In this document: piece after piece, positions 1,925 through 31,132 of the stretch | Numbering within the stretch: the first letter of the stretch is position 1 | Layout: every line of letters starts with the position of its first letter | Assembly (NCBI GenBank): GCA_963666215.2 | Contig: CAXWPL010000005.1 | Coordinates: 1,504,001-1,568,000, forward strand | Reading direction: 5' to 3' | DNA from: Acidobacteriota bacterium | GTDB lineage: Bacteria; Acidobacteriota; UBA890; WLXD01 | DNA length: 64,000 nt | Position numbers and translations under genes: made by a program | Notes under the pieces: model-generated | Told to the model about the DNA's origin: nothing | Databases searched by the model: none | The model's input: only the letters and a program-made list of their open reading frames with translations

Positions 1925-4147
1925 TCATGCGATGACCTGTTGATCGAACAACTGATCGACTCGACCTGACTCGTAACCCAGGAGGCCCTCCAGCACGCGC
2001 CGCGTATCGCCGAACAACAGGGGTGCACCGCGCCAGATCGAAGTGCGCAACCCATCCACATGCCACAGCGAGCCACCGATCCTGAGTTTGCTGTCCAGCA
2101 CTTCGGGCGATTCATCCTGAATCCAGAATCCTCGTTTCACCAGGTACTCGTCGTCCAGAACATCGCCACTATGGGCAATCCTCTGCATCGGCAACTCAAC
2201 GGCGGAGAGTCGCGCCAGGAGCTCATTCTCGTCAAGGCGGGCCGCCGCAATCCGAATGGCTTCACTGGAAGCATCCGCTGCGTTGAGGCTTTGCTCTAAC
2301 CGCCGCCAGTCCTCTTTCGTCTCGATGAATAACAAGGCGAAGCGACCGTCACCTGTCTCCACCACCAGATACTCCAGGTCTGGTCCAGAGACATCATCCT
2401 CATCGGCCAAGGCGTCGAGCAGGGGCTCCAGGACGATGGCTGCGGTCATTTCCAGCTCAGACAAATCCACCCGAGCGGGCTTTCCAGTTGCCTGCGCATT
2501 GCGAACAAATGCGGCAATCGCAAATGCGCCGCCAAGCCCTGAAACCGGGTCGGGGTATGCGATGTACATCTGTGAGCAGGTCCGGCCATCCTGGCTGGTG
2601 GCATACCCTGCTCCAGCGGCGGCGTAGACGTGGGTGCCATAGCCGATGTAGTGGGAGCGAGGTCCGGTCTGCCCAAAGGCGGACATCGAGACGTAGACCA
2701 GGCTTGAATTTGACTCGATCAGGTCACCGTAACCAACACCCAAACGATCCACCACACCCGGTGAAAAGTTCTCGACCACGACGTCAGATTCAGCCGCGAG
2801 CGCCTTGACGATCTGCTTGCCTCCGGCGGTCTTCAAATTTACGCCGATCGAGAACTTACCGCGCTGGTTGGCACTCCACCACGCGGCGGTGTTGTTCGAG
2901 TCCTCATTCTCTGCCGCGAAAGGTGGGTTGCGACGCATATTACTCGCCGTCGGCTGCCACTCGACATTGATGACTTCCGCGCCCAGATCTGACAAGAGTG
3001 TGGTCGCGAAAGGTCCGGCCCAAGCCCAGCTCAGGTCTAGTATCCTCAGACCCGCGAGCGGTAGGTCAGAACCACCTTCACGAAGCCGGCCGGCTCGCCG
3101 GTCGGGTCTCGGCTGTGCTGACTGCCCGACCGAATCGCCAACGGCGGCGAGCCAAGGTAGATTGAGCTTCGGAGCCGTCGACGTGGTTCGATCAAAGAAC
3201 TCACGCGCGTTCAAATGAACGTCAACGGCGACTTGAGCAGAGCTGTACACCGGCGCGACGGGGATGTGTTCAGCCTGACACAGATCCGCGATGTCTTCCG
3301 ATGTTCTGTCCTTCGCCCAAGCTCGAATACGGTGATCGATTCGATCGACTGCCTCACTGAGAATCAACGGATTTGCTTCAACCTGCTCGGCAACATCATC
3401 CAGTTCACCCATGAGCCGCAACAAATCCGCCCAATGGCCAGGATTGACAGCACGGACATAAGCCAGGCCATTGGCTGTTTCAACGGTGCCACCGGGCATC
3501 GGACGCACTGGCGCTTGCCCCGCCCCGATGATCCTATTTTCCAACTGCGCAAACGCGACCGGCTGCATCGGCATGATCGCTAACAGTTCGAGCTGATCGA
3601 GCTGAAGGTGACGTGCGCCTGAGTCCTCTCCCAGCAACGCACACATACCCGCCGTGGCGGCGCTGACCCCTGCAAGCAGACTCGCCTGGCGGTTCAGCGG
3701 AATGCAGGGCGTCGTCAGGGCACCGGCGGCGTCCATTTCGCGCGTCAGGTAACCGAGACCAGACCGTGCCCACAGCTTCATATCCTGCACCAATGAAGCC
3801 GAAAAGCTCTCCGCTGGCTCCATCGGCGATGTAATCTCAATCAGCACCGCCGACTCGATCAGCCGGGGTGGAACCTCGCCTCTCAAAGCCAATCCCGCGC
3901 TGTCACAGATGACTAGATCGTACGGTTCGTCTACCGAGAAGTCTGCTGAGGCGACCGAACGGGCCACCTGAGATTCGAATCTTGCTTCTGGCGTCTGGTC
4001 GTCGGGTTCGCGCCATCGCGGTCGGTAGGACATAACACAAGCGCCGCTGTCTGCCAGCCAACCTGCAGCGACTCGCGTCGCAATCGCAACGCCAAGCGTC
4101 AGAACGGATACGTTTGCCAGAGGTGTCGTGTACCGAGACAGCTGCAT
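1925..4147 (-). CDS. CaiB/BaiF family CoA-transferase with two tandem domains
   Basis: PLAGLRILDLSWAWAGPFATTLLSDLGAEVINVE, NQRGKFSIGVNLK, DVVVENFSPG. Start at MQLSRY chosen. Confidence 0.85.
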   Translation of the reverse strand: MQLSRYTTPLANVSVLTLGVAIATRVAAGWLADSGACVMSYRPRWREPDDQTPEARFESQVARSVASADFSVDEPYDLVICDSAGLALRGEVPPRLIESAVLIEITSPMEPAESFSASLVQDMKLWARSGLGYLTREMDAAGALTTPCIPLNRQASLLAGVSAATAGMCALLGEDSGARHLQLDQLELLAIMPMQPVAFAQLENRIIGAGQAPVRPMPGGTVETANGLAYVRAVNPGHWADLLRLMGELDDVAEQVEANPLILSEAVDRIDHRIRAWAKDRTSEDIADLCQAEHIPVAPVYSSAQVAVDVHLNAREFFDRTTSTAPKLNLPWLAAVGDSVGQSAQPRPDRRAGRLREGGSDLPLAGLRILDLSWAWAGPFATTLLSDLGAEVINVEWQPTASNMRRNPPFAAENEDSNNTAAWWSANQRGKFSIGVNLKTAGGKQIVKALAAESDVVVENFSPGVVDRLGVGYGDLIESNSSLVYVSMSAFGQTGPRSHYIGYGTHVYAAAGAGYATSQDGRTCSQMYIAYPDPVSGLGGAFAIAAFVRNAQATGKPARVDLSELEMTAAIVLEPLLDALADEDDVSGPDLEYLVVETGDGRFALLFIETKEDWRRLEQSLNAADASSEAIRIAAARLDENELLARLSAVELPMQRIAHSGDVLDDEYLVKRGFWIQDESPEVLDSKLRIGGSLWHVDGLRTSIWRGAPLLFGDTRRVLEGLLGYESGRVDQLFDQQVIA

Positions 4148-19532: not shown

Positions 19533-20587
19533 ATGACCAAGCTCTTCCTCATGCTAGTCACGATCGTTCTCCGAGCGCGCCGACTTGTCTTTCGGTCGCG
19601 GTCCGATCTTGTTCTAGAGAACGTCGCCTTGAAACAGCAGGTCGACGCGCTGAAGCAGAAGCGACCTGGCCCGCGACTCGACGACGCCGGTCGGGCCTTC
19701 TGGGTGGCGATGAGAAGAGTGTGGAGCGGCTGGGCCGAACGCCTCGTCATTGTGAAGCCGGAGACCGTAGTGAAGTGGCATCGTGAGCGTTTTCGGCGCT
19801 ACTGGACCGAGATCGCCCGACACAAGCGCTGCCCAGGGCGGCCGAGAGTTGAGGGGGAGATCCGCGAGTTGATCCGTAGGATGGCTCTGGAAAACAACTG
19901 GGGAGCTCCGCGGATTCACGGTGAACTGGAGAAGCTGGGCTTCAGCCTCTCCGAGGCGACCGTCTCCCGGTACATGCCGCGACGGCCGGCAGATCTCGAC
20001 GTCGTCCAACGGTGGTTGAGTTTCCTGCGCAACCACAAGGAATGCATCGCAGCGATGGACTTCTTCACCGTCCCGACCGCCTCGTTCGTGTTCTGTACTG
20101 CTGGTTCGTCATCCACCACGACCGACGACGGATCCTTCACTTCAACGCCACGTATAACCCGAGCTCTGCCTGGGTTATCCAGCAGCTGAGGGAGGCGTTC
20201 CCCTACGACACGGCACCGAGGTATCTGATCTTCGACCGCGACGCCATCTTCAGCAAGGCGGTGGCCGGGTTCGTCCGGTCGATGGGAACCAAGGTGTGTC
20301 GAACTGCCTATCGAAGCCCCTGGCAAAACCCTGTGGCAGAGCGCTGGATCGGTGGGTGCCGCCGCGAGCTCTTCGATCACGTGATCGTGGTCCACGAGCT
20401 GCACGCCATCCGGCTCGCCCGCGCCTACATCGACTACTTCCATGAGGACCGCACCCATCTCGGCCTCGGCAAGGACACGCCGTCTAGGCGACCAGTGACA
20501 CCGCCCCCGGCGCCGACCGCGAAGGTCGTCTCGATGCCTCGTGTCGGAGGGCTCCATCACCGATACGAGTGGCGCGAAGCCGCCTGA
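19533..20587 (+). CDS. Integrase-core DDE transposase, frameshifted near 20085
   Basis: LVLENVALKQQ, WGAPRIHGEL, AMDFFTV | RVLYCWFVIHH, YLIFDRD, SPWQNPVAERWIG. Confidence 0.85.
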
Positions 20588-20913
20588 ACGTGCGGGCCTC
20601 GGAGCGGCTCTCTCCACGGGCTGTCTTGAGGAAACAAAGCCTCACCTGGCCAGCGCTAGCGCACCTGTGAGAGTGATCAGGGTAGTTGATGGGATTCGCC
20701 TCTGTTCTAGTCACGGTAGTCGAGGGAAGAGCGTACTGGTCCCTCGGATAGCGTGATCAAAGCGGGCAAAAGAGCCGGCATCATCCGCGGCCACCGGGCG
20801 CGCCGTTGTTGTGGGGGGGGGAGTGAGGTGCCCTCCGGGGGTTGACGTCCCCTCGGAGGGCGTGTCTTCTTTCGTTGAATTTAAAAACGAAAGGACGAAA
20901 GGAGACAGCCCTC

Positions 20914-21480
20914 TTGTACCAGACCCTGCTTCAGGATGCCAGTTTCTACGATCTACTGCTGCGACTCGACGAGGATCTAGCGGAGAAGACTCGCGCCCTA
21001 GGCTGCGAATGCGGTGGGCGTTTGCACCAGGCTCACTATCCACGTAAGCCTCGCGGAGGGCCCGAGGAGCTGCGCAGAAGGACCTCGTTGCGGCTGAGCT
21101 ATTGCTGCTCGGTGGAGGGGTGCCGTCGTCGTCAGACGCCTGCGTCCTTTCGTTTTCTGGGCCGGAAGGTGTACTTCAGCGTGTTGGTACTTCTGGTCCC
21201 AGTGCTGCGGGAAGGGGCCAAGGGAGAGCGGCTGCATCGTCTACAGGAATTGTTTCAGGTGAGCGCACGTACGGTGCGCCGATGGCAGAGATGGTGGCGA
21301 GAGGACTTCGGTCTCAGCCCGGTCATGACTCGCTTTCAAGGCTTTCATGCCGAGCCGATCCAGCGGCAAGACTTGCCGGGCTCTCTGCTCCTAGTCTTTC
21401 GTCAATTGTCGCCGGCAGGCGAGAGGGTGCTGGCGGTGATTCGCGCCCTATTGGTCGGGCCCTCTGTGCTAGCTGTGTGA
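20914..21480 (+). CDS. Transposon gene 1: Zn-ribbon-like plus HTH hypothetical protein
   Basis: CECGGRLH...YCCSVEGCRRR and VSARTVRRWQRWW; AAGGAG before TTG 20914. Confidence 0.75.
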   Translation: MYQTLLQDASFYDLLLRLDEDLAEKTRALGCECGGRLHQAHYPRKPRGGPEELRRRTSLRLSYCCSVEGCRRRQTPASFRFLGRKVYFSVLVLLVPVLREGAKGERLHRLQELFQVSARTVRRWQRWWREDFGLSPVMTRFQGFHAEPIQRQDLPGSLLLVFRQLSPAGERVLAVIRALLVGPSVLAV

Positions 21481-22071
21481 GGGTCGCCGGAAACCCGCAG
21501 AAGATGCGTCTCGACTCGCCGAGAAGCGGGCCTTAAGGTCTCTGTTCTCGCCGCCGATTGAAGGAATCGGCGCCCAGGAGAGGGAGATGAGCCATCGAGC
21601 CTCGACGCAACAACGCTGGGCGCAGTTTCGCTTCAGTGTGGTGGGTGAGCTGTTGGCTGCGCCTCCCGCACCGGGACATCTGCAGGTGGAATTGTCTCGA
21701 CTCTCCCAGAAGTGTTGATGGCTGCGAGAAAGCGCATCCCGTTGGCTGCGAGCGCAGTTTCCGGGATGGAGTGAGCTGAGGGCTTCGCGACCGCGGGAAA
21801 GCTAGGCCTTCTTCAGGAAGGGCGGCATCATCCCGCCGGAACGGCGGTCCGGGTGCGTGGTCCCGGCGGCGTGTTTGCGGTCGGAAGAGATGCGTGAGTC
21901 GGTGTAGGGCTTTGCAGTGCGGGCTCTGCTCTGATAGAGCAGGCCGACCAGAGACGGCGAGAGCCCGGGAAAGCGAAGTAGAAAACGCCCCGGGCTCTGC
22001 CCCAAACCGCAGCATTAGCTGCGCTTGCAGTATGGCAGAGAGTCGGGGTCGTCGTCGAATGGGAGGCGACG

Positions 22072-22467
22072 ATGCGACCGGACTACCGACTCTTCGACTG
22101 TGCTCGATGCCGTCGGCGTATCTCGCTGTGCTCGCACTGTGACCGTGGCCAGCGTTACTGCCGGGCTTGTGCTCTGGTGGCTCGTCGGGAATCGACTCGG
22201 GCGGCCGGCCATCGGTACCAGCGAAGCCTCCGAGGTCGGCATTGTCATGCCGCCCGTCAGGCCCGCTACCGTCGGCGCCAGCGCGAGCGGGCAGAGAAAG
22301 TGACGCATCAGGGTACCCCAGGCGGTACTTCGGGGAGGACACTGTGTCGGATCGAGACTCCGAGGCGCGAAGTGCGCTACGACCCGAGGAATCCGCGATG
22401 CATGCAGTGTGGAGAGGCCTGCCGAGAGTTTGTGCGAACGAGCTTTCGTCGTTGCCGACGGAGATAG
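22072..22467 (+). CDS. Cys-rich, Arg-rich accessory protein upstream of istA
   Basis: CARC..CSHCDRGQRYCRAC..CMQCGEAC; stops 4 nt before the istA start. Confidence 0.7.
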   Translation: MRPDYRLFDCARCRRRISLCSHCDRGQRYCRACALVARRESTRAAGHRYQRSLRGRHCHAARQARYRRRQRERAEKVTHQGTPGGTSGRTLCRIETPRREVRYDPRNPRCMQCGEACREFVRTSFRRCRRR

Positions 22468-22471
22468 GGGC

Positions 22472-23980
22472 GTGATCGACGCACAGCTGCGCGGGGAGAT
22501 CCGTCGTCTGTTCCTGGTCGAGAAGTGGAAAGTCGGCACGATCGCTCGACAGCTACAGCTGCACCCCTCAACCGTGCGCCGGGCGCTGGAGAAGTCCGGC
22601 GTGCTACCCCAGCAGCGACGAGGGAGGATGATCGATCCTTACCTGCCGTTCATCGAGCAGGTGCTCGGGACCTACCCACGACTGCCGGCGAGCCGTCTCT
22701 ACACCATGGTGGTGGAGCGCGGCTATCCAGGAGGCCCGGATCAGTTTCGCCACCTGGTGGCCTCGATGCGACCGAAGCCCCAGCGCGAGGCGTTTCTCTC
22801 GCTGCGCATGCTGCCAGGAGAGCAGGCGCAGGTCGACTGGGGCCACTTCGGTCGGCTCCGCGTCGGCCGGGCACATCGTCGGCTCTATGCCTTCGTCTTC
22901 GTGCTGTCGTTCTCGCGCACGGTCTTCGTGCACTTCACCCTCGACACTCGTCTCGAAACCTTCTTGCACGCTCACCAGCTGGCCTTCCACTACGTCGACG
23001 GCGTCGTCAGGACCGTTCTGTACGACAACCTGCGAACCGCGGTGATCGAGCGGCAGGGAACCGCGGTGCGCTTCCATCCCGTGCTGCTCGATTTCGCCAG
23101 CCACTACGGCTTCCTTCCCACCGTCGCCGCGGTGGCTCGGGGAAATGAGAAAGGCCGCGTCGAGCGCGCAATCCGCTTCCTGCGAAGCTCGTTCTTCGGC
23201 GCCCGAACGGTGAGCGATTTGGATCGTCTGAATCGGCAGGTCCTGGAATGGTGCCAGAGGTCGCAGCGCAGACCCTGGCCGCAGGACCGACAGCGAACCG
23301 TGAAAAGCGCCCTGGCCCAGGAACGACCTCGACTGCTTGAGCTTCCCGGAGACGACTTCGAAACCGACCTGCGACTGGAGATCAAGGTCAGAAAGACGCC
23401 GATCGTGCGCTTCGACCTCAACGACTACTCGGTGCCGCACAGTCATGTGCAGAGGACCGTCACGCTCCTCGCCAGCGAGCATCGGGTGCGGATCCTCGAT
23501 GGCCAGGAGCTCCTCGCCGAGCACCCTCGCTCGTACTCCCGGGGCGAGCAGATCCTCGATCCTCAACACCTCGAGGAGCTCCTCGCTCACAAACGCAGGG
23601 CCCGACGACACCGGGGCTTCCATCGGCTGTTTTCCGCTGTGCCTCGATGCGAAGAGCTGATGCAGCAGCTCGCCGAGCGAGGCGAGAACCTCGGAACGCA
23701 GACCGCCGGCCTGCTCCGACTCCTGCGCCAGTACGGCCCCCAGCGACTCGACAAAGCCGTGCGCGAAGCGCTCCTGAACCACGCACCGCGATTCCAGTCC
23801 GTCCGGCTCCTACTCGAACGGCACCAGCGCGGCCTCGGTCAGCCCCCGGCTTTACCGGTGCCGCTCAGCCAGGAGCTCCAACAGCGAGATCTCTCCGTGA
23901 GACCGCACAACCTCGAGGACTACGACCAACTTGGAGGCAACGACGATGGCCCGACCCAGGAAGAGTCCAACGATCCCTGA
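22472..23980 (+). CDS. istA: IS21 transposase IstA
   Basis: PGEQAQVDWG, LSFSR, LYDNLRT, NEKGRVERAIRFLR, FDLNDYSVP. Confidence 0.93.
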   Translation: MIDAQLRGEIRRLFLVEKWKVGTIARQLQLHPSTVRRALEKSGVLPQQRRGRMIDPYLPFIEQVLGTYPRLPASRLYTMVVERGYPGGPDQFRHLVASMRPKPQREAFLSLRMLPGEQAQVDWGHFGRLRVGRAHRRLYAFVFVLSFSRTVFVHFTLDTRLETFLHAHQLAFHYVDGVVRTVLYDNLRTAVIERQGTAVRFHPVLLDFASHYGFLPTVAAVARGNEKGRVERAIRFLRSSFFGARTVSDLDRLNRQVLEWCQRSQRRPWPQDRQRTVKSALAQERPRLLELPGDDFETDLRLEIKVRKTPIVRFDLNDYSVPHSHVQRTVTLLASEHRVRILDGQELLAEHPRSYSRGEQILDPQHLEELLAHKRRARRHRGFHRLFSAVPRCEELMQQLAERGENLGTQTAGLLRLLRQYGPQRLDKAVREALLNHAPRFQSVRLLLERHQRGLGQPPALPVPLSQELQQRDLSVRPHNLEDYDQLGGNDDGPTQEESNDP

Positions 23981-24740
23981 CGAACCACTACGAGAGCTCG
24001 CCCGATCCCTCGGCTTCTACGCCCTCGTCGACGACTGGGGCACCTACCGAGAACAGCCCTGGCTCGAACAGCTGCTGCGCAAAGAAGAGGCCGAGCGCAA
24101 ACGGCGCAGCCTCGAACGGCGCATCCGCACCAGCCGCGTCGGGCTCTTCAAGAGCATCGCCGACTTCGACTTCTCCTGGCCCCAGCGCATCGACCGCGAG
24201 CAGATCCAGGATCTGCTCACCCTCCAATTCCTCGACGACATCACCAACGTCATCCTCCTCGGACCCAACGGTGTCGGCAAGACCATGATTGCCAAGAACC
24301 TCCTCTACCAGGCGCTGCAACGAGGGGCCACCGCCAGCTTCGTCACCGCCTCCGACATGCTCAACGATCTCGCCGTCCAGGAAACCCCCTCGGCGCTCCA
24401 GAGAAGGCTCTCCAAATACACCCGACCCTCGCTTTTGGCAATCGATGAGCTCGGCTATCTCTCCTACGACCACCGCCACGCGGATCTCCTCTTCGAGGTC
24501 GTCTCCAGGAGATACGGCAACAAGCCCATTCTTCTCACCACCAACAAGCCCTTCGCCGAATGGGCCGAGGTCTTTCCCAACGCCTCCTGCGTCGTCACTC
24601 TCGTCGATCGACTCACCCACCACGCCGAGATCGTCAAGATCGAGGCTAACTCCTATCGCCGCAAGGAGGCCAAGGAGGCTGCTGAAAAAAAGGCCAAGGA
24701 CCGCGCCAAAAGGCGGAGCGCAGCACGACGACGCTCATGA
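23946..24740 (+). CDS. istB: IS21 helper ATPase IstB
   Basis: DFDFS, GPNGVGKT (Walker A), LAIDELGY (Walker B), TTNKPFAEW, LVDRLTHH. Confidence 0.93.
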   Translation: MARPRKSPTIPDEPLRELARSLGFYALVDDWGTYREQPWLEQLLRKEEAERKRRSLERRIRTSRVGLFKSIADFDFSWPQRIDREQIQDLLTLQFLDDITNVILLGPNGVGKTMIAKNLLYQALQRGATASFVTASDMLNDLAVQETPSALQRRLSKYTRPSLLAIDELGYLSYDHRHADLLFEVVSRRYGNKPILLTTNKPFAEWAEVFPNASCVVTLVDRLTHHAEIVKIEANSYRRKEAKEAAEKKAKDRAKRRSAARRRS

Positions 24741-25093
24741 CCCGAAGCCACTATCGGCGCCAGCTCCTCCGCCTCTATCGACTCCTTCCCGACACCCCGC
24801 ACCGCTTCCACCACGGCGACCGCGTCATCGTCGACCAGCTCTTCGACCAAGACCTGCCTCTCACCGTCCTCCAGGCCGCCCTCCTCCTCGGCTCCGCCCG
24901 ACGCGCATGCCGAGATCCGCGCCTACCAAAGCTCCAGCCCATCCGATCCCTCGCCTACTTTCTCCCCATCCTCCGAGAACTCCCCACGACGCCACCCCCC
25001 GAGGGGTACCTCGACTATCTGCGCCACACCCTGAGTCACGCCTCGCGGGGACAAAAAACCGACTCGCAGCCAACTAAGTGCGCTTTCTCGTAG
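24737..25093 (+). CDS. Unknown 118-aa accessory protein downstream of istB
   Basis: ATGA overlap with istB; homologous to 27242-27589 (LYR..P.T, DR, AALLL..ARR, PI.SL.YFLP..RE, GYL.YL). Confidence 0.82.
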   Translation: MTRSHYRRQLLRLYRLLPDTPHRFHHGDRVIVDQLFDQDLPLTVLQAALLLGSARRACRDPRLPKLQPIRSLAYFLPILRELPTTPPPEGYLDYLRHTLSHASRGQKTDSQPTKCAFS

Positions 25094-26403
25094 CCGGTAA
25101 CACAGAAGGCCTGGCGCCATCCGATCACGGAGAAGGCGGTGTACTTTGCCCGCTCGACGATTGAGCGTTGGTACTACACGGCCCTGGCCGGTCGCGATCC
25201 GATCGGGGCGCTACAACGCCGATCGAGAAGCGACAGCGGCCAAGCGCGCGCCATCCCAACCCGGATCGCCGAGCTGATCCACACGCAATACAAGGCCCAC
25301 CCGACGTGGAGCTACCAGCTCCATTGGGACAATCTGGACGTGGTGCTAAAAGAGCGACCGGAGCCAGGGAAGGTGCCTTCCTACTCCACCCTGCGCCGCT
25401 TCATGATCGCGCACGGTTGGCCCAAACAACGACGCACGAAGGGAAAGGATCGCAGCACTGCCTCCGGTGCCCCTGCGCGCGAGAAGCGCAGCTACGAAGC
25501 CGAGTACGTCAACGGGCTCTGGCACCTCGACTTCCACCACGGCTCGCGCAAGATCCCGAGCTCCGCAGGGACCTGGGAAGTACCGATGCTGCTGGCGATT
25601 CTCGACGATCACTCCCGGCTCACCTGCCATCTGCAGTGGTATCTGCACGAGACCGCCGAGTGTCTGATCCACGCTCTGATCCAAGCCTTCATCAAACGCG
25701 GACTGTGCCGCTCACTGCTCACCGATAACGGCAGCGCCATGATCGCCGACGAGACCACCGAGGGGCTCCTACGCCTCTCCGTCGTCCATCGCACCACATT
25801 GCCCCGGAGCCCCTATCAAAACGGGAAACAAGAAAACTTCTTCTCTCGAGTCGAATCCCGCCTCCTCGCCATGCTCGAAGGACACGCGGATCTCAATCTG
25901 GCATTGCTCAATGAGGCGACGCTGGCTTGGGTGGAGATGGAGTATCACCGCAGCGTCCATTCCGAGACCGGCCAGACGCCGCTCGACCGCTTTCTCGAGG
26001 GTCCCTCCGTCTCTCGGATCTGCCCCAGCCTGGACGAGCTGCGCTTCGCCTTCACCGCCGCTCGAAAGCGCACCCAGCGCCAAAGCGACGGCACCATCAG
26101 TCTTGACGGCACCCGTTTCGAGATCCCCTCTCGTTTCCATCATCTCAACCGGATCTCGGTGCGATACCAGAGCTGGGAGAAAAGCTCCGTCTTCATGGTC
26201 GACGAAAGCTCCGACGTCCCACTCGAGCGCCTCTACCCCATCGACAAGGCAAGAAACGCTTCCGGCATCCGCCGCCCGATCCAACCCCAGAGCACCGACG
26301 AGCCGACAGGCCCGGAGCCTGGCATCGCACCCCTACTCCGCAAACACATGGCGGAGTACGCCGCCACCGGGCTCCCGCCCGCCTACCTCAAAAAGGAGAC
26401 ACC

Positions 26404-27249
26404 GTGAACAACCAGAAACTACTGGCACTCTTCGGACTCAAATGGAACCCCTTTACCCCCAACATCCCCGTCGAAGCGCTGTGGCGACACCCGCATCTCG
26501 ACCACTTCTGCTGGCGCCTGGAGACCCTCGTCCACGACGGTGGCTTCGCATTGATCTCCGGTGATCCCGGCACCGGCAAGTCGGTCGCTCTACGCACCCT
26601 CGCTCACCACCTTCAACACCTGCCCGACCTGCGCACCGGAGTCCTCACGCGGCCACAGAGCAGTCTCGCCGACTTTTACCGTGAGCTCGGACAGCTCTTC
26701 GGGGTCCCGCTCAATCCACACAACCGATGGGCCGGATTCAAAGCCCTCCGACAGACCTGGCTCTCCCATGTCGATGCCACCCATCAAAGACCCGTACTCT
26801 TGATCGACGAAGCACAGGAGCTCGCCGCCAACGTGCTGGCCGAACTGCGCATCCTCGCCTCTGCGGACTTCGACTCACGCTCCATCCTCACCGTCGTCCT
26901 GTGCGGCGACTCCCGACTCACACAGCTCTTCCGACGAGACGATTTCCTACCCGTCGCCAGCCGCATCCGCGTACGCCTCCTCCTCCTCGACTACCTGCCC
27001 CCAGAGACGTTGGCCGAATGGCTCCAGCACTCCCTGACACAAGCCGGAAACCCCAGTCTCCTCGACCACGAGGTCATCACCACTCTCGCCGAGCACGCCG
27101 CCGGAAACCTCAGAGTACTCGCACACATGGCCAACGAGCTCCTCGCCATGGCCGCCAAAGAAGAGCTACCCAACATCGATCAGAAGCTCTACCTCGAGGT
27201 CTTCTCGCCACCTACCTCCCAGCGCTCTCCCAGGAAAGCCCGTGCCTGA
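26404..27249 (+). CDS. ExeA-like AAA+ ATPase (transposition helper)
   Basis: GDPGTGKS, PVLLIDEAQ, VVLCG, ASRI, AGNLR; GTGA overlap with the transposase. Confidence 0.9.
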   Translation: MNNQKLLALFGLKWNPFTPNIPVEALWRHPHLDHFCWRLETLVHDGGFALISGDPGTGKSVALRTLAHHLQHLPDLRTGVLTRPQSSLADFYRELGQLFGVPLNPHNRWAGFKALRQTWLSHVDATHQRPVLLIDEAQELAANVLAELRILASADFDSRSILTVVLCGDSRLTQLFRRDDFLPVASRIRVRLLLLDYLPPETLAEWLQHSLTQAGNPSLLDHEVITTLAEHAAGNLRVLAHMANELLAMAAKEELPNIDQKLYLEVFSPPTSQRSPRKARA

Positions 27250-27589
27250 CTCCCCATCCGCCCAGCAACAACGACGGCACCTCCAGAGCGTCCTCGAGCT
27301 CTATCGACGACATCCCCAAACCACCGGACGAGTCAGAAACGCCGATCGCCGCCTCGCCGTAGACCTCTATCGAAACGGCGTTACCCTCGACACCATCAAC
27401 GCTGCCTTACTACTCGTCGCCGCCAGGAGATGCAACGAGGCACACACCACAACCCCCATCCAGAGTCTCCACTACTTCCTCCCCGTCATCCGAGAGATTC
27501 GCGATAGACCCCTCGATAACGGCTACCTCCGGTACCTTGAAACTCTCATCCGCGACAGCAGCCAAGACCCAGACCATCATTTACTGTGA
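27242..27589 (+). CDS. Unknown 115-aa accessory protein, homologue of 24737-25093
   Basis: Overlaps the ATPase end, stops 33 nt before the element end, shares the motifs listed for 24737-25093. Confidence 0.82.
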   Translation: MPDSPSAQQQRRHLQSVLELYRRHPQTTGRVRNADRRLAVDLYRNGVTLDTINAALLLVAARRCNEAHTTTPIQSLHYFLPVIREIRDRPLDNGYLRYLETLIRDSSQDPDHHLL

Positions 27590-27885
27590 TCAGCCCGCCA
27601 TCGATTACCGTGATCACTCTCACACCTGCACCGCGCGAGAGAATCGTTCACCATATCATTCCTACCGATTCTCGCGGTAGATGAGGCCGACTGCCGTTCT
27701 GAGCGAACCTCCAGCGTCGACCCTGTCGGCAGACGAGTATTGAGGAGGCACAAGTTAGATATCGTAGCTCATGGCTCGGAGGCCTGAGCGAGACACGAAT
27801 TTTCACAGGAAAACCGGACCCGCTAAACGTAGCGGCCCAAAATGCACCTAGTCCTGGATTCCTTACCGCCGGGGCGTCCGCCGTC

Positions 27886-27929: not shown

Positions 27930-29684
27930 TTGATGAAGCTGCTCAAGGCCTCCTATCTCGCCCTCAAGGCTGCGGTGGCGCGCGTCACCAGTAATGACTC
28001 CGCGTATGCCATCTACGCTCTGGTAGTCATACTGTCGGTGCTTGCCGTGAAGTTGTGGCTTGCGTCGAGCGTCGAAGCTTCGGGCTTGTTTGCCGACGAC
28101 TACGACTACCTGAATAAGAGCGTCTCCTACGTTCGCGGAGATTTCGAATTCGCGGACTACCCCTTTTACAACCACGCGGCAGGCATCTTGTATCCGATCC
28201 TCATCTCGTTTTGGCAGCTGGTCTCCGCGCCCGAATGGCGGATGTTCGTGGTCATCGTTGTAAATGGGATCAGCGCTGGGATTGCGGGGCTCGCCATGTG
28301 TGCAACCGTAAAGAAGGTCACGCCGGTCCGTTCTCTGTGGCTACCGCTGGTCGTGGCGACGCTCCCCTGCGTCTTCGTCTTTTCGTTCTTTGCGCTCACC
28401 GAGAATCTCCTCTTCGCCGTCGTGGCCCTCGTCATGCTTCTGATGGTCCATGTTGAGTGTGCATTCGAGACGAAGTGGTGGATTCCACTGGTCGTCATTG
28501 GGGTCGCTGCCGCGCCACTGATACGCGCCCCGGGGCCTGGCCCTCTTGCCCGCCGTGTTGGTTGTATTCGTCCTGCAGCTCAAGCGTTGGGGTCGCGAGA
28601 AGGTTGCCGGCCTCAGCGTCGTAACCATCGTCGTAACCGGCGCCTTCTACGCGTTCCAGGTGAATGCTCTGCCGATGGCAAACGCCGTGTCGACCCGTGA
28701 AGCCTTGTACCTCCAGTCGTTGCCCGATCTGATCGACAGCCCAGCTGACCTCCTGACCCTCATCAAGATGGCTCTCAACCAGGGCACCTATCTGATGATC
28801 AGCACCGGGTTCCTCCCCGCCCTGTTCTTCGTCATGGGTGCGTGGACACGGGACAAGAGCGAGTCGGCCCATCTCCGGCGAGTGGTCGCGGCGTTTGCGG
28901 GAACGACCATCGCCGCATTCGTTGCCTTCGGGATGCTGCACCTGACCCGGAAGTTCGGTATGGACCCTGGGTCCGCAACATTCATCTACGGACGCTACAA
29001 CGACCCGGCGACGCTACCCTTGCTCGTGTCCGGCCTCACCGTGATGATGGGACGACGGGAGTTTTCGAAGCTCCAACAGATCTTCCTGCGGGTCGGAGCC
29101 CCGCTACTCATCGCCTTGGCGTTGGCCCGGGTGTTGGGATCGAGTTGGTGGTCAGTGAACTCCGCCGGGCTGCTGTTTCTCCCAAGTCGCGCGACGTATT
29201 CACTGTACGCCGTCCTTCCACTGCTGGTCGGAGTGGCCGTGTTTCTGCAGCTCCCGGTTCGCAAGCTCGTCAGGTTCGCGCTGCCGGCCATTGTTGTTCT
29301 CAGCGTGGTCGCCATCTGGAACGCGAACAAGCTGGTCCAGTATCGTTCGGAACGGATCGCTTACGCCACCGCAGGAGCGCGTTGGATACATGAAAACGTC
29401 GGAACGGACAGCTGCATAGGCGACGACATCCGCGTCTCACACAGTCCCGCTCCAGGGGCGCTCAAGAGCATGTGCAACGTAAACCGCGCCATGCGCTTTC
29501 TCACACACCCGATCCCCTACGAGACTTTTGATCCGGCCGGCGAGGAATTCCCCTGCCCGTACATCTACACGCTTACGACAGCGCTGCGCTATCGCCACTG
29601 GCAACCTGCGTGGGCGAACGACGACTACGTTCTGTATCGTATAGGAGGCGGCCTGGATCGTTCGCTGAACTTTCCAGACGAACG
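27930..29684 (+). pseudogene. Polytopic membrane protein (GT-C-like), frameshifted near 28540 and truncated by IS30
   Basis: FADDYDY loop after the first TM helix, LYPILIS, LTENL, FIYGRYND; many TM helices split across two ORFs. Confidence 0.6.
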
Positions 29685-31132
29685 GCGGATTCAACTGGTC
29701 GTCGCAACATCTCGTGATGGAGGTGTTTCGATGGGAGTTGGCAAGTGTCAGGGTGCGATTCGAGCGATGCGTGGCCAGATGCGGTTACCTGGCCGGCCCT
29801 CGACAGCGCGGCGCGAGGACCGGATCCGGTTCTGGGAGACGATCGCTCGTGGGGCGTCCAGCGAGGACGCCGCAACAGAGGCTGGGGTGTCGCCGGCTGT
29901 CGGGTCGAGATGGTTCAGGCAAGCTGGTGGAATGCGACCTATCTCGTTGGCTCCGGTGTCGGGGCGTTATCTGTCGTTCGCCGAGCGTGAAGAGATCGCC
30001 ATCCTTCACGCTCAGCATGTTGGGGTACGTGAGATCGCTCGACGCCTGGGTCGTTCACCGTCGACGATTTCGCGGGAGCTGCGCCGCAACGCGTCGACTC
30101 GCAGCCGTGCCGTAACTTATCGGGCAACGACTGCGCAGTGGCACGCGGAGCGGCGCGCCAGCCGTCCGAAGGTCTCCAAGCTTGCCGCGAACGACGCCTT
30201 GCGTGAGTACGTGCAGAACCGCCTCGCCGGCGTGATCGCAAGGCCTGACGGGGAGCTGGTGCCGGGTCCGGATGTGCGTTGGATCGGCCGCCGGCACGGC
30301 CGTCGCCAGGATCGGCGTTGGGCGAAATCCTGGAGTCCGGAGCCGATCTCGAACCGGCTTCGGATGGATTTCCCCCATAATGAGTCGATGCGGATCTCTC
30401 ACGAGGCGATCTACCAAGCGCTCTACATCCAAGGTCAAGGAGCCCTCAAACGCGAGCTCGTCGCGTGCCTGCGAACCGGGCGAGCGCTACGAGTGCCGCA
30501 TGCGCGAACCCGGGGGCGAGGCAAGAAATTTGTGACTCCGGAGATCATGATCAGCGAACGCCCCGCCGAAGCCGGCGACAGGGCCGTGCCGGGTCACTGG
30601 GAAGGCGACCTGATCGTCGGGCTCGAGAGCTCAGCGATCGGGACCCTCGTCGAACGGACTACGCGGTTCACGATGCTGCTGCACCTGCCCCGCATGGAAG
30701 GTCACGGTAGCGAATCGAGGGTGAAGAACGGGCCGGCGCTCGCCGGGCACGGCGCCGAAGCCGTCCGTGACGCGATCGCGGCGTCGATCACCACGCTGCC
30801 CGAGCAGCTCCGCCGGTCCTTGACCTGGGACCAGGGCGCCGAGATGGCGCAACACGCTCAACTCCGCGTCGATACCGGCCTCGCGATCTACTTCTGCGAC
30901 CCGCACAGCCCCTGGCAGCGGGGCACCAACGAGAACACCAACGGACTGCTACGCCAGTACTTCCCGAAGGGCACCGACCTTGTCAGATACTCCTGCGGCG
31001 ACCTCGCCGCGGTCGCGCTCGCCCTCAACGGCCGACCTCGCAAGACCCTCGGCTGGAGAACCCCTGCCGAAGTCTTCGATGAGTTTGTACACTCTGCTCA
31101 CCAAGGCAACGCTGCGACGACTCCTTGAACCT
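29685..31132 (+). mobile_element. IS30-family element (ends approximate)
   Basis: Ends GGATTCAACTGGTCGTCGCAAC / GCTGCGACGACTCCTTGAACC; contains an IS30 transposase. Confidence 0.82.
29731..31128 (+). CDS. IS30 transposase
   Basis: RYLSFAEREEI, RSPSTISRELRRN, ISHEAIYQ, PGHWEGDLI, SLTWDQGAEM, PWQRGTNENTNGLLRQYFPKG. Confidence 0.92.
   Translation: MGVGKCQGAIRAMRGQMRLPGRPSTARREDRIRFWETIARGASSEDAATEAGVSPAVGSRWFRQAGGMRPISLAPVSGRYLSFAEREEIAILHAQHVGVREIARRLGRSPSTISRELRRNASTRSRAVTYRATTAQWHAERRASRPKVSKLAANDALREYVQNRLAGVIARPDGELVPGPDVRWIGRRHGRRQDRRWAKSWSPEPISNRLRMDFPHNESMRISHEAIYQALYIQGQGALKRELVACLRTGRALRVPHARTRGRGKKFVTPEIMISERPAEAGDRAVPGHWEGDLIVGLESSAIGTLVERTTRFTMLLHLPRMEGHGSESRVKNGPALAGHGAEAVRDAIAASITTLPEQLRRSLTWDQGAEMAQHAQLRVDTGLAIYFCDPHSPWQRGTNENTNGLLRQYFPKGTDLVRYSCGDLAAVALALNGRPRKTLGWRTPAEVFDEFVHSAHQGNAATTP

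Follow-up and report, generated by a model that had tools for sequence, protein, structure and literature searches.

A homologous small gene ends both a four-gene IS21 element and the unrelated transposon that it interrupts in an acidobacterial genome

Why should two transposons with unrelated machinery, one lodged inside the other, both end in a version of the same small gene? The question arises from a stretch of 64,000 nucleotides (nt) from an Acidobacteriota bacterium (GCA_963666215.2, contig CAXWPL010000005.1; here called the window, with positions counted from its first letter), in which an outer transposon (20668 to 27622) hosts an IS21 element (21713 to 25102) inserted inside the outer transposase gene. 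Both elements read, in order, a Cys-rich protein, a DDE transposase, an ATPase, and a protein of about 115 amino acids (aa). The genes and left terminal repeats described below lie on the forward strand and the right terminal repeats on the reverse strand. Our preferred answer, to which we assign a probability of roughly 0.55, is that the small protein is the product of the last, coupled gene of an IS21 sublineage and of an unrelated IS481-like/AAA_22 family and serves as an adaptor in transposition.

Comparison of the two elements gene by gene carries this argument. The inner small protein (24737 to 25093; 118 aa) and the outer one (27242 to 27589; 115 aa), both called as open reading frames (ORFs) and followed by BLASTP and profile searches, agree at 37 of 95 positions (BLASTP E of 4e-17), which bears out the homology that an earlier, sequence-only reading of the window had proposed from 35 of 79 positions in a manual alignment. 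The other gene pairs are not detectably alike (E of 0.29 for the ATPases, 1.2 for the transposases, and 2.9 for the Cys-rich proteins); the earlier reading had assigned the transposases and ATPases to different groups. Because only the small proteins align significantly, the core observation holds: one homologous gene is shared by otherwise unrelated modules. Translational coupling of the last gene to the ATPase gene was also found as claimed, since the ATG of the inner small gene overlaps the IstB stop codon (ATGA) and the outer small gene starts with a GTG 8 nt ahead of the ATPase stop. The inner ORF terminates within the right terminal repeat, and the outer ORF stops 9 nt short of its own. 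Repeats, target duplications, and intact copies agree in placing both elements, nested and with the four-gene layout, where the earlier reading had put them.

The inner element is 3,390 base pairs (bp) long, begins with TGT, ends with ACA, and has identical copies of CAGAAG on its two flanks (21707 to 21712 and 25103 to 25108). The repeat search returned imperfect (80%) inverted repeats of 41 nt at 21712 to 21752 and 25063 to 25103, which place the terminal inverted repeats of the element at 21713 to 21752 and 25063 to 25102. Its first gene, defined by the ORF call and a 22-sequence family alignment (A5), encodes a Cys-rich protein of 131 aa (22072 to 22467) with a CxxC...CxxCDRGQxYC motif, an arginine-rich stretch, and a second CxxCG; the protein has no match in Pfam or NCBIfam. 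The IstA transposase frame (22409 to 23980; NF033546, rve, and Mu-transpos_C_2) comes next, and its true start probably lies just past the Cys-rich stop. IstA scores 244.8 bits against the IS21 transposase model NF033546 (cut-off, 160), and the IstB helper ATPase that directly follows it (23931 to 24740; PF01695, E of 1.8e-62) scores 210.6 bits against NF038214 (cut-off, 200). With IstA, IstB, inverted repeats, and short target duplications all in place, the inner element belongs to the IS21 family. By the accounts in PMC12486865 and PMC11208146, IS21 codes for IstA and IstB and nothing else, in agreement with what the earlier reading had taken as established, and the inner element is a variant of the family because it has four conserved genes rather than istA and istB alone. 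Two strong IstB genes of the same genome (G000:C2:759212-759907 and G000:C1:484891-485586) stand without a small-protein match in their vicinity. The genome therefore houses canonical as well as four-gene IS21 elements, and the four-gene form is a sublineage and not the whole family.

Five intact copies from a different genome (L005 to L009) served to set the true ends of the outer element, 20668 and 27622; the inverted repeats as computed span 32 nt (20661 to 20692 and 27598 to 27629). Its left terminal inverted repeat, which begins TGAGAGTGATCA, occupies 20668 to 20692 and its right one 27598 to 27622, and both are flanked by the six bases CACCTG (20662 to 20667 and 27623 to 27628), the right copy being placed by the intact-copy comparison. 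The first gene is a 212-aa ORF (20842 to 21480), whose true start may be further in, for a Cys-rich protein with a helix-turn-helix (HTH_23, E of 2.6e-5, slightly short of the Pfam cut-off) and with homologues in L005, L015, L058, and L061. The IS21 element severs the first 42 codons of the outer transposase (21587 to 21712), which are identical at 42/42 positions to residues 39 to 80 of the intact open frame in L005, from the remainder (25109 to 26407; rve core, E of 2.1e-9), which resumes at residue 81 of the intact relative and is identical to it at 428/431 positions. The outer element, which is single-copy in this genome, is thus broken here. The best model for its transposase is the IS481-type NF033577, at 123.4 bits, below the cut-off of 224. 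The outer ATPase (26404 to 27249; AAA_22/ExeA-like, PF13401, E of 2e-22) matched only the general AAA_22 model, with TIGR03015 at 83.8 bits, below its cut-off. Neither this transposase nor this ATPase has a solved-structure relative by sequence.

The small proteins match no Pfam, NCBIfam, or PHROG model, and PHROGs gave no consistent family among 77 members. A word-indexed search returned only 13 relatives, and an exhaustive profile search returned 1437 clusters (50% identity) at an E of ≤1e-3, 652 of them at ≤1e-10. The family alignment used below (A3) has 77 rows: the two window proteins and 75 of the 150 listed representatives, those of about 99 to 129 aa, with longer ones omitted. A protein atlas search gave unnamed clusters only and no model of either query, tblastn with the inner small protein against 72,556 plasmids gave no match, and a pattern scan of viral contigs gave no relative of the small protein. 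Searches of the full-text literature, with ISfinder and supplements outside their scope, found no description of a four-gene IS21 element or of the small-protein family. Codon analysis, which included the inner gene, covered 29 of the locus sequences (406 pairs), and the ratio of nonsynonymous to synonymous substitution rates (dN/dS) was 0.10 to 0.48 for pairs within subgroups. The small gene is genuine: it is under selection and accessory to the element.

A pattern scan with one genome per species yielded 71 loci in 45 assemblies, the neighbors of which were scored with the window's own proteins. Most are from Acidobacteriota, with single loci labeled Solirubrobacteraceae, Gemmatimonadaceae, Nitrospiraceae, Hyphomicrobium, Nocardioides, and Binataceae. 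IstB lies directly upstream of the small gene at 49 of the 71 loci and an AAA_22 ATPase at 9; the others have IstA (2, with IstB truncated), a Cys-rich gene (2), a contig edge (4), or nothing recognizable (5). An even sample of the phylum gave matches at an E of ≤1e-5 in 43 of 401 genomes (including one unpublished, G049), and at 21 further loci with strong matches from this sample the upstream gene is IstB (17) or IstA (1), with nothing directly upstream at 3. These loci are not independent, as many are copies of one element. The main carriers of the family are IS21 elements of the four-gene kind in soil bacteria. The suggestion in the sequence-only reading that the gene is a conserved accessory module fits its position after an ATPase gene, inside the repeats, and its mobility with the element. 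That it belongs to ATPase-dependent transposons alone does not fit, since two tyrosine-recombinase loci and a chromosomal protein, both described below, also carry the domain.

The position after the ATPase gene invites another explanation, a cofactor role. Acting in trans as an AAA+ lid-like helical domain, or bound to the helper ATPase as an adaptor, the small protein would tune oligomerization or ATP turnover of the ATPase. IstB/DnaC-type ATPases are not known to have a full lid. Among the 62 public loci that could be judged and had a neighbor, 58 have an ATPase gene just ahead of the small gene, the small-gene start overlaps the ATPase stop, and IstB-small fusions make up 6 of 19 longer relatives. 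However, some of the fusions look frameshifted or read-through, and at least one seems to be a damaged gene. In addition, the two ATPases served are unrelated at the BLAST level, and the small gene also occurs without an ATPase partner. We consider a cofactor role doubtful on this evidence together with the structural comparisons given below.

Two loci without IstA or IstB are L024 (3764 to 5834) and L053 (3676 to 5974), each of which has a Cys-rich gene, then the small gene, and then a gene for a tyrosine recombinase (Phage_integrase, E of 1.1e-16 and 8e-8, respectively). The two recombinases are unlike each other, and the small proteins take separate tree positions within the IS21 group; in L024, the recombinase start overlaps the small-gene stop, and a gene for a Gp49/ParE-like toxin is found upstream. 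In L053, the Cys-rich/small pair is preceded by a fragment of an AAA_22-type ATPase (2521 to 3132) that lacks its N-terminal part and may be left over from another transposon. A database protein (P0092) has a Cys-rich domain fused to the small domain. On account of the tyrosine-recombinase loci and the fusions, the Cys-rich, arginine-rich protein recurs as a partner as much as the ATPase does. A divergent IS21 subgroup (L012, 1256 to 2100; L017, 952 to 2520; L020, 2320 to 4219) has a ParB-like gene (HTH_ParB) ahead of istA. Two of its members, L017 and L020, also have a different Cys-rich gene in front of the ParB-like one, which makes them five-gene elements in which the small gene is still last. 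A ParB-like/small fusion also exists (P0289). Separately, the small domain occurs twice in tandem at the C terminus of P0150 (878 aa, no family match), a protein of the representative library. The outer-class small genes sit at three places in the tree, on weak deep branches, so that a single origin for them is neither shown nor excluded.

Copies within genomes delimit the mobile unit. This genome has three copies of the IS21 element, all 3,390 bp with 100% identity and each with a different 5- to 6-bp duplication, and other genomes have 8, 4, and 3 near-identical copies of 3.39 to 3.43 kb; one genome has five copies of the outer type, of 3,555 bp. Element boundaries in these multicopy sets always enclose all four genes. 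The complete four-gene unit transposes as one piece. Another possibility is that the small protein is cargo that benefits the element or host apart from transposition, for example, through counter-defense or mimicry of the related host protein. Such a role would suit a gene that occurs with two kinds of DDE/AAA+ transposons as well as tyrosine recombinases and that has a host paralogue open to mimicry or antagonism, but it is quite improbable given the fixed last-gene position, translational coupling to the ATPase, and terminal-repeat overlap in nearly all loci.

The same copies speak to target choice. Direct repeats of 4 to 6 bp flank 10 of 15 IS21-type copies (the other 5 have none), all 5 outer-type copies, and all 3 copies in this genome, and the duplicated sequences and flanks differ among all copies compared, with no site preference among six outer-type insertions. 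The sequence-only reading had offered a target selector as one possible function. In favor of a TniQ-like selector formed with the Cys-rich protein, the gene layout resembles that of Tn7 and Tn5053, and the Cys-rich proteins carry Zn-ribbon-like CxxC pairs. However, the variety of target sites and flanks leaves a sequence-specific selector unsupported, and Pfam scans gave no match to TniQ or TniB at an E of ≤0.1. We regard this role as highly improbable.

Weak single-copy matches in the phylum search revealed a chromosomal protein of Acidobacteriota, about 225 aa long, that is labeled hypothetical wherever it is labeled, has at least 537 relatives, and has no Pfam match. That this protein shares the domain of the small protein is new here: the homologous part is its first 90 residues (hhalign probability 97.6%, E of 4e-12, 77 columns). 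This genome has one copy, outside the window (L118:1492-2235, contig C3), between phosphatase-like and ComEC-like genes as read by eye from the translations; another lies at L100:1486-2169, and in another genus the gene follows valS-like and birA-like genes. In a structure model of the protein (pLDDT, 88.1), the shared domain is accompanied by another helical domain and by a disordered tail. The tail ends in a family-invariant LPxLSLF, which may resemble a sliding-clamp-binding peptide. The chromosomal relative does not adjoin an ATPase gene, a further point against an ATPase cofactor. It also raises the possibility that the small protein is the transposon-borne relative of an unrecognized acidobacterial replication or repair factor with a DnaD-like N-terminal domain and the LPxLSLF tail, its domain captured by several unrelated elements (IS21-type, IS481-like/AAA_22-type, and tyrosine-recombinase) for coupling their integration products to the host replisome; we judge such a history unlikely.

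AlphaFold, run on the A3 alignment, predicts the small protein to be a five-helix bundle (mean pLDDT, 89.8; pTM, 0.80). The strongest family motif, S-L-H-Y-F-L-P-V-I-x-E, lies in the penultimate helix, where Y78-x3-V82-I83-x2-I/L86 is conserved. In structural alignment, the small protein gives middling scores with DnaD-like domains 2zc2_B (Z of 5.8; root mean square deviation [rmsd], 3.0; 73/75 aligned) and 2i5u_A (Z of 5.3; rmsd, 2.7; 66/77), and the chromosomal protein scores somewhat higher with the same two (2i5u_A, Z of 7.0, rmsd of 2.3, 68/77; 2zc2_B, Z of 6.9, rmsd of 2.9, 72/75). PMC2978336 places the DNA-binding motif of DnaD, YxxxIxxxW, in the penultimate helix, and the Tyr and aliphatic pair of the family fit it. 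These structural neighbors (Z of 5.3 to 7.0) and the place of the motif lend limited support to a loose resemblance to DnaD that the sequence-only reading had pointed out. The AAA+ lids are the best structural neighbors of both proteins, as an ATPase cofactor would suggest, with Z values of 7.1 (3thg_A; rmsd, 2.9; 78 aligned), 7.0 (4w5w_A), and 6.6 (7upr_C) for the small protein and 8.0, 7.7, and 7.5 for the chromosomal protein. TnsC is also among the neighbors of the small protein (Z of 5.0 and 4.7).

Profile comparisons of the family with nucleic-acid-binding domains bear on a regulatory function, in which the small protein, by itself or jointly with the Cys-rich protein, would repress or time the expression or activity of the transposase as an inhibitor, immunity factor, or operon regulator. 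The only weak Pfam similarities that recur in the family are to three-helix nucleic-acid-binding domains, namely, RecX_HTH2 in 7 of 77 members and RepB_primase_C (PF22448) in 8 of 77 at an E of ≤1 (best E of 8e-4). Generic control would suit a basic, helical protein of this small size whose gene closes the operon and that is present with three different recombination machineries. However, no known repressor or helix-turn-helix family was matched at curated thresholds (for RepB_primase_C, the window protein reaches 14.2 bits and the cut-off is 26.1), and the elements reach 8 to 11 copies per genome, unlike the prediction for a strong inhibitor. A regulator is improbable on balance.

The small gene, then, travels with complete transposons from two unrelated families and is predicted to be coexpressed with their other genes, and its product has an ancestor in common with a chromosomal protein. 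Under the adaptor reading, the small protein would bind DNA or a partner through a helical domain like the C-terminal domain of DnaD and would join the transposition nucleoprotein complex, probably with the Cys-rich protein of the element. It may help to deliver the product of strand transfer to the replication or repair factors of the host, or it may otherwise tune assembly, and it would read no specific target sequence. Coupling of integration products to host replication or repair is suggested by the link to the putative replication-associated host protein. We put forward this mechanism, with its DnaD-like domain and its hand-over to host factors or tuning of assembly, only tentatively.

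Several results weigh against an adaptor role or against its likeness to DnaD. Two strong IstB genes in this genome do without the small gene, and canonical IS21 functions with IstA and IstB alone according to PMC11208146. Between subgroups, dN/dS rises to 0.4 to 1.09, as synonymous sites saturate, and the median ratio of nonsynonymous to synonymous differences per site (pN/pS) over all 406 pairs is 0.57. The AAA+ lids equal or outscore the DnaD domains for both the small (Z of 7.1) and chromosomal (Z of 8.0) proteins, and the Z values of the exhaustive structural alignment (VIA) are ≤8 throughout, a range that the tool calls common for helical bundles; this unspecific range counts equally against reading the lid matches as a sign of an ATPase cofactor. 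Foldseek, proposed earlier as a check for DnaD-type relatives, found nothing better than an E of 0.29 among solved structures and viral models. Pfam DnaB_2 (PF07261) has no match in this genome at an E of ≤10 and matches 0/77 and 0/28 family members at an E of ≤1. Position +8 of the motif is L or I in the mobile family, and in the chromosomal family the spacing is Y...W at +9, so that the Trp is displaced by one residue relative to DnaD. DnaD is thus the best lead but is not established.

Other searches add context to the fold comparison. A profile search of solved-structure sequences gave chance-level matches only. The replisome organizer of phage 80alpha carries Phg_2220_C and not DnaB_2, and acidobacterial DnaB_2 matches are marginal (21 to 27 bits, in frames of about 600 aa). 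Complex prediction for the inner Cys-rich and small proteins (alignments A5 and A6) gave a score of 0.02 (mark, 0.32), which is uninformative either way. In a comparison of the IS21 element with contigs of three metatranscriptomes and a single DNA run, the sole exact contig from an RNA library (247 nt) lay in istB and no contig covered the small gene; neither the presence nor the absence of a transcript can be concluded from this, because the data are assembled contigs.

The surroundings of the outer element may hold other insertions. To its left, two overlapping ORFs (19533 to 20587) appear by eye to be a frameshifted DDE transposase of another insertion sequence. At 28546 to 31128, an 860-aa frame looks by eye like a membrane protein in its first half and an IS30-type transposase in its second; in-frame readthrough of a further insertion may explain it.

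ATPase-assisted transposition has IS21 as one of its structural models, and IstA and IstB are taken to be all that this family requires. The retention of two more genes by a sublineage both widespread and active would depart notably from that picture. One of these two genes also has homologues in an unrelated transposon family and in a conserved chromosomal protein. Together, these findings point to control of transposition, or coupling to the host, at a level that current models lack. The window also provides a handle on an unnamed family of more than 1,000 sequence clusters and on a conserved acidobacterial host protein.

Comparison with known systems places the pieces as follows. The small protein is like the C-terminal domain of DnaD/DnaB (DDBH2) in being helical and of similar size and topology, in that DnaD structures align with it over nearly their full length, and in having a conserved aromatic-aliphatic motif in the penultimate helix. 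It differs in the lack of a profile match and of a conserved motif Trp, and whereas DnaD/DnaB is a chromosomal initiator of Firmicutes, the small protein belongs to transposons of Acidobacteriota and other soil phyla. The lid subdomain of AAA+ proteins gives the best structural scores (Z of 7.1 to 8.0), although these are in the unspecific range and the small protein, save for the six fused forms, stands alone without an ATPase base.

Among transposons, the outer element resembles IS481 through a transposase that falls under the family cut-off, and it has four genes, including one for an ATPase, in contrast to single-gene IS481. Tn7 and Tn5053 are laid out with a transposase, an ATPase, and a Cys-rich selector. 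The outer element is like them in its rve transposase, its AAA_22-type ATPase, and its extra small proteins, one of them Cys-rich, and it differs in gene order, in having an IS481-type model as its best match, and in the lack of site preference among its insertions. Canonical IS21, for which PMC11208146 gives 5-bp repeats and no strong target specificity, is the closest known counterpart of the inner element, which has full IstA and IstB above the NCBI cut-offs and TGT...ACA ends with internal repeats. Inner-type elements likewise have short target duplications and no evident target sequence. The difference is in gene content: four genes rather than two, with a Cys-rich gene before istA and the small gene after istB, both widely conserved, and with a ParB-like gene added in a further subgroup.

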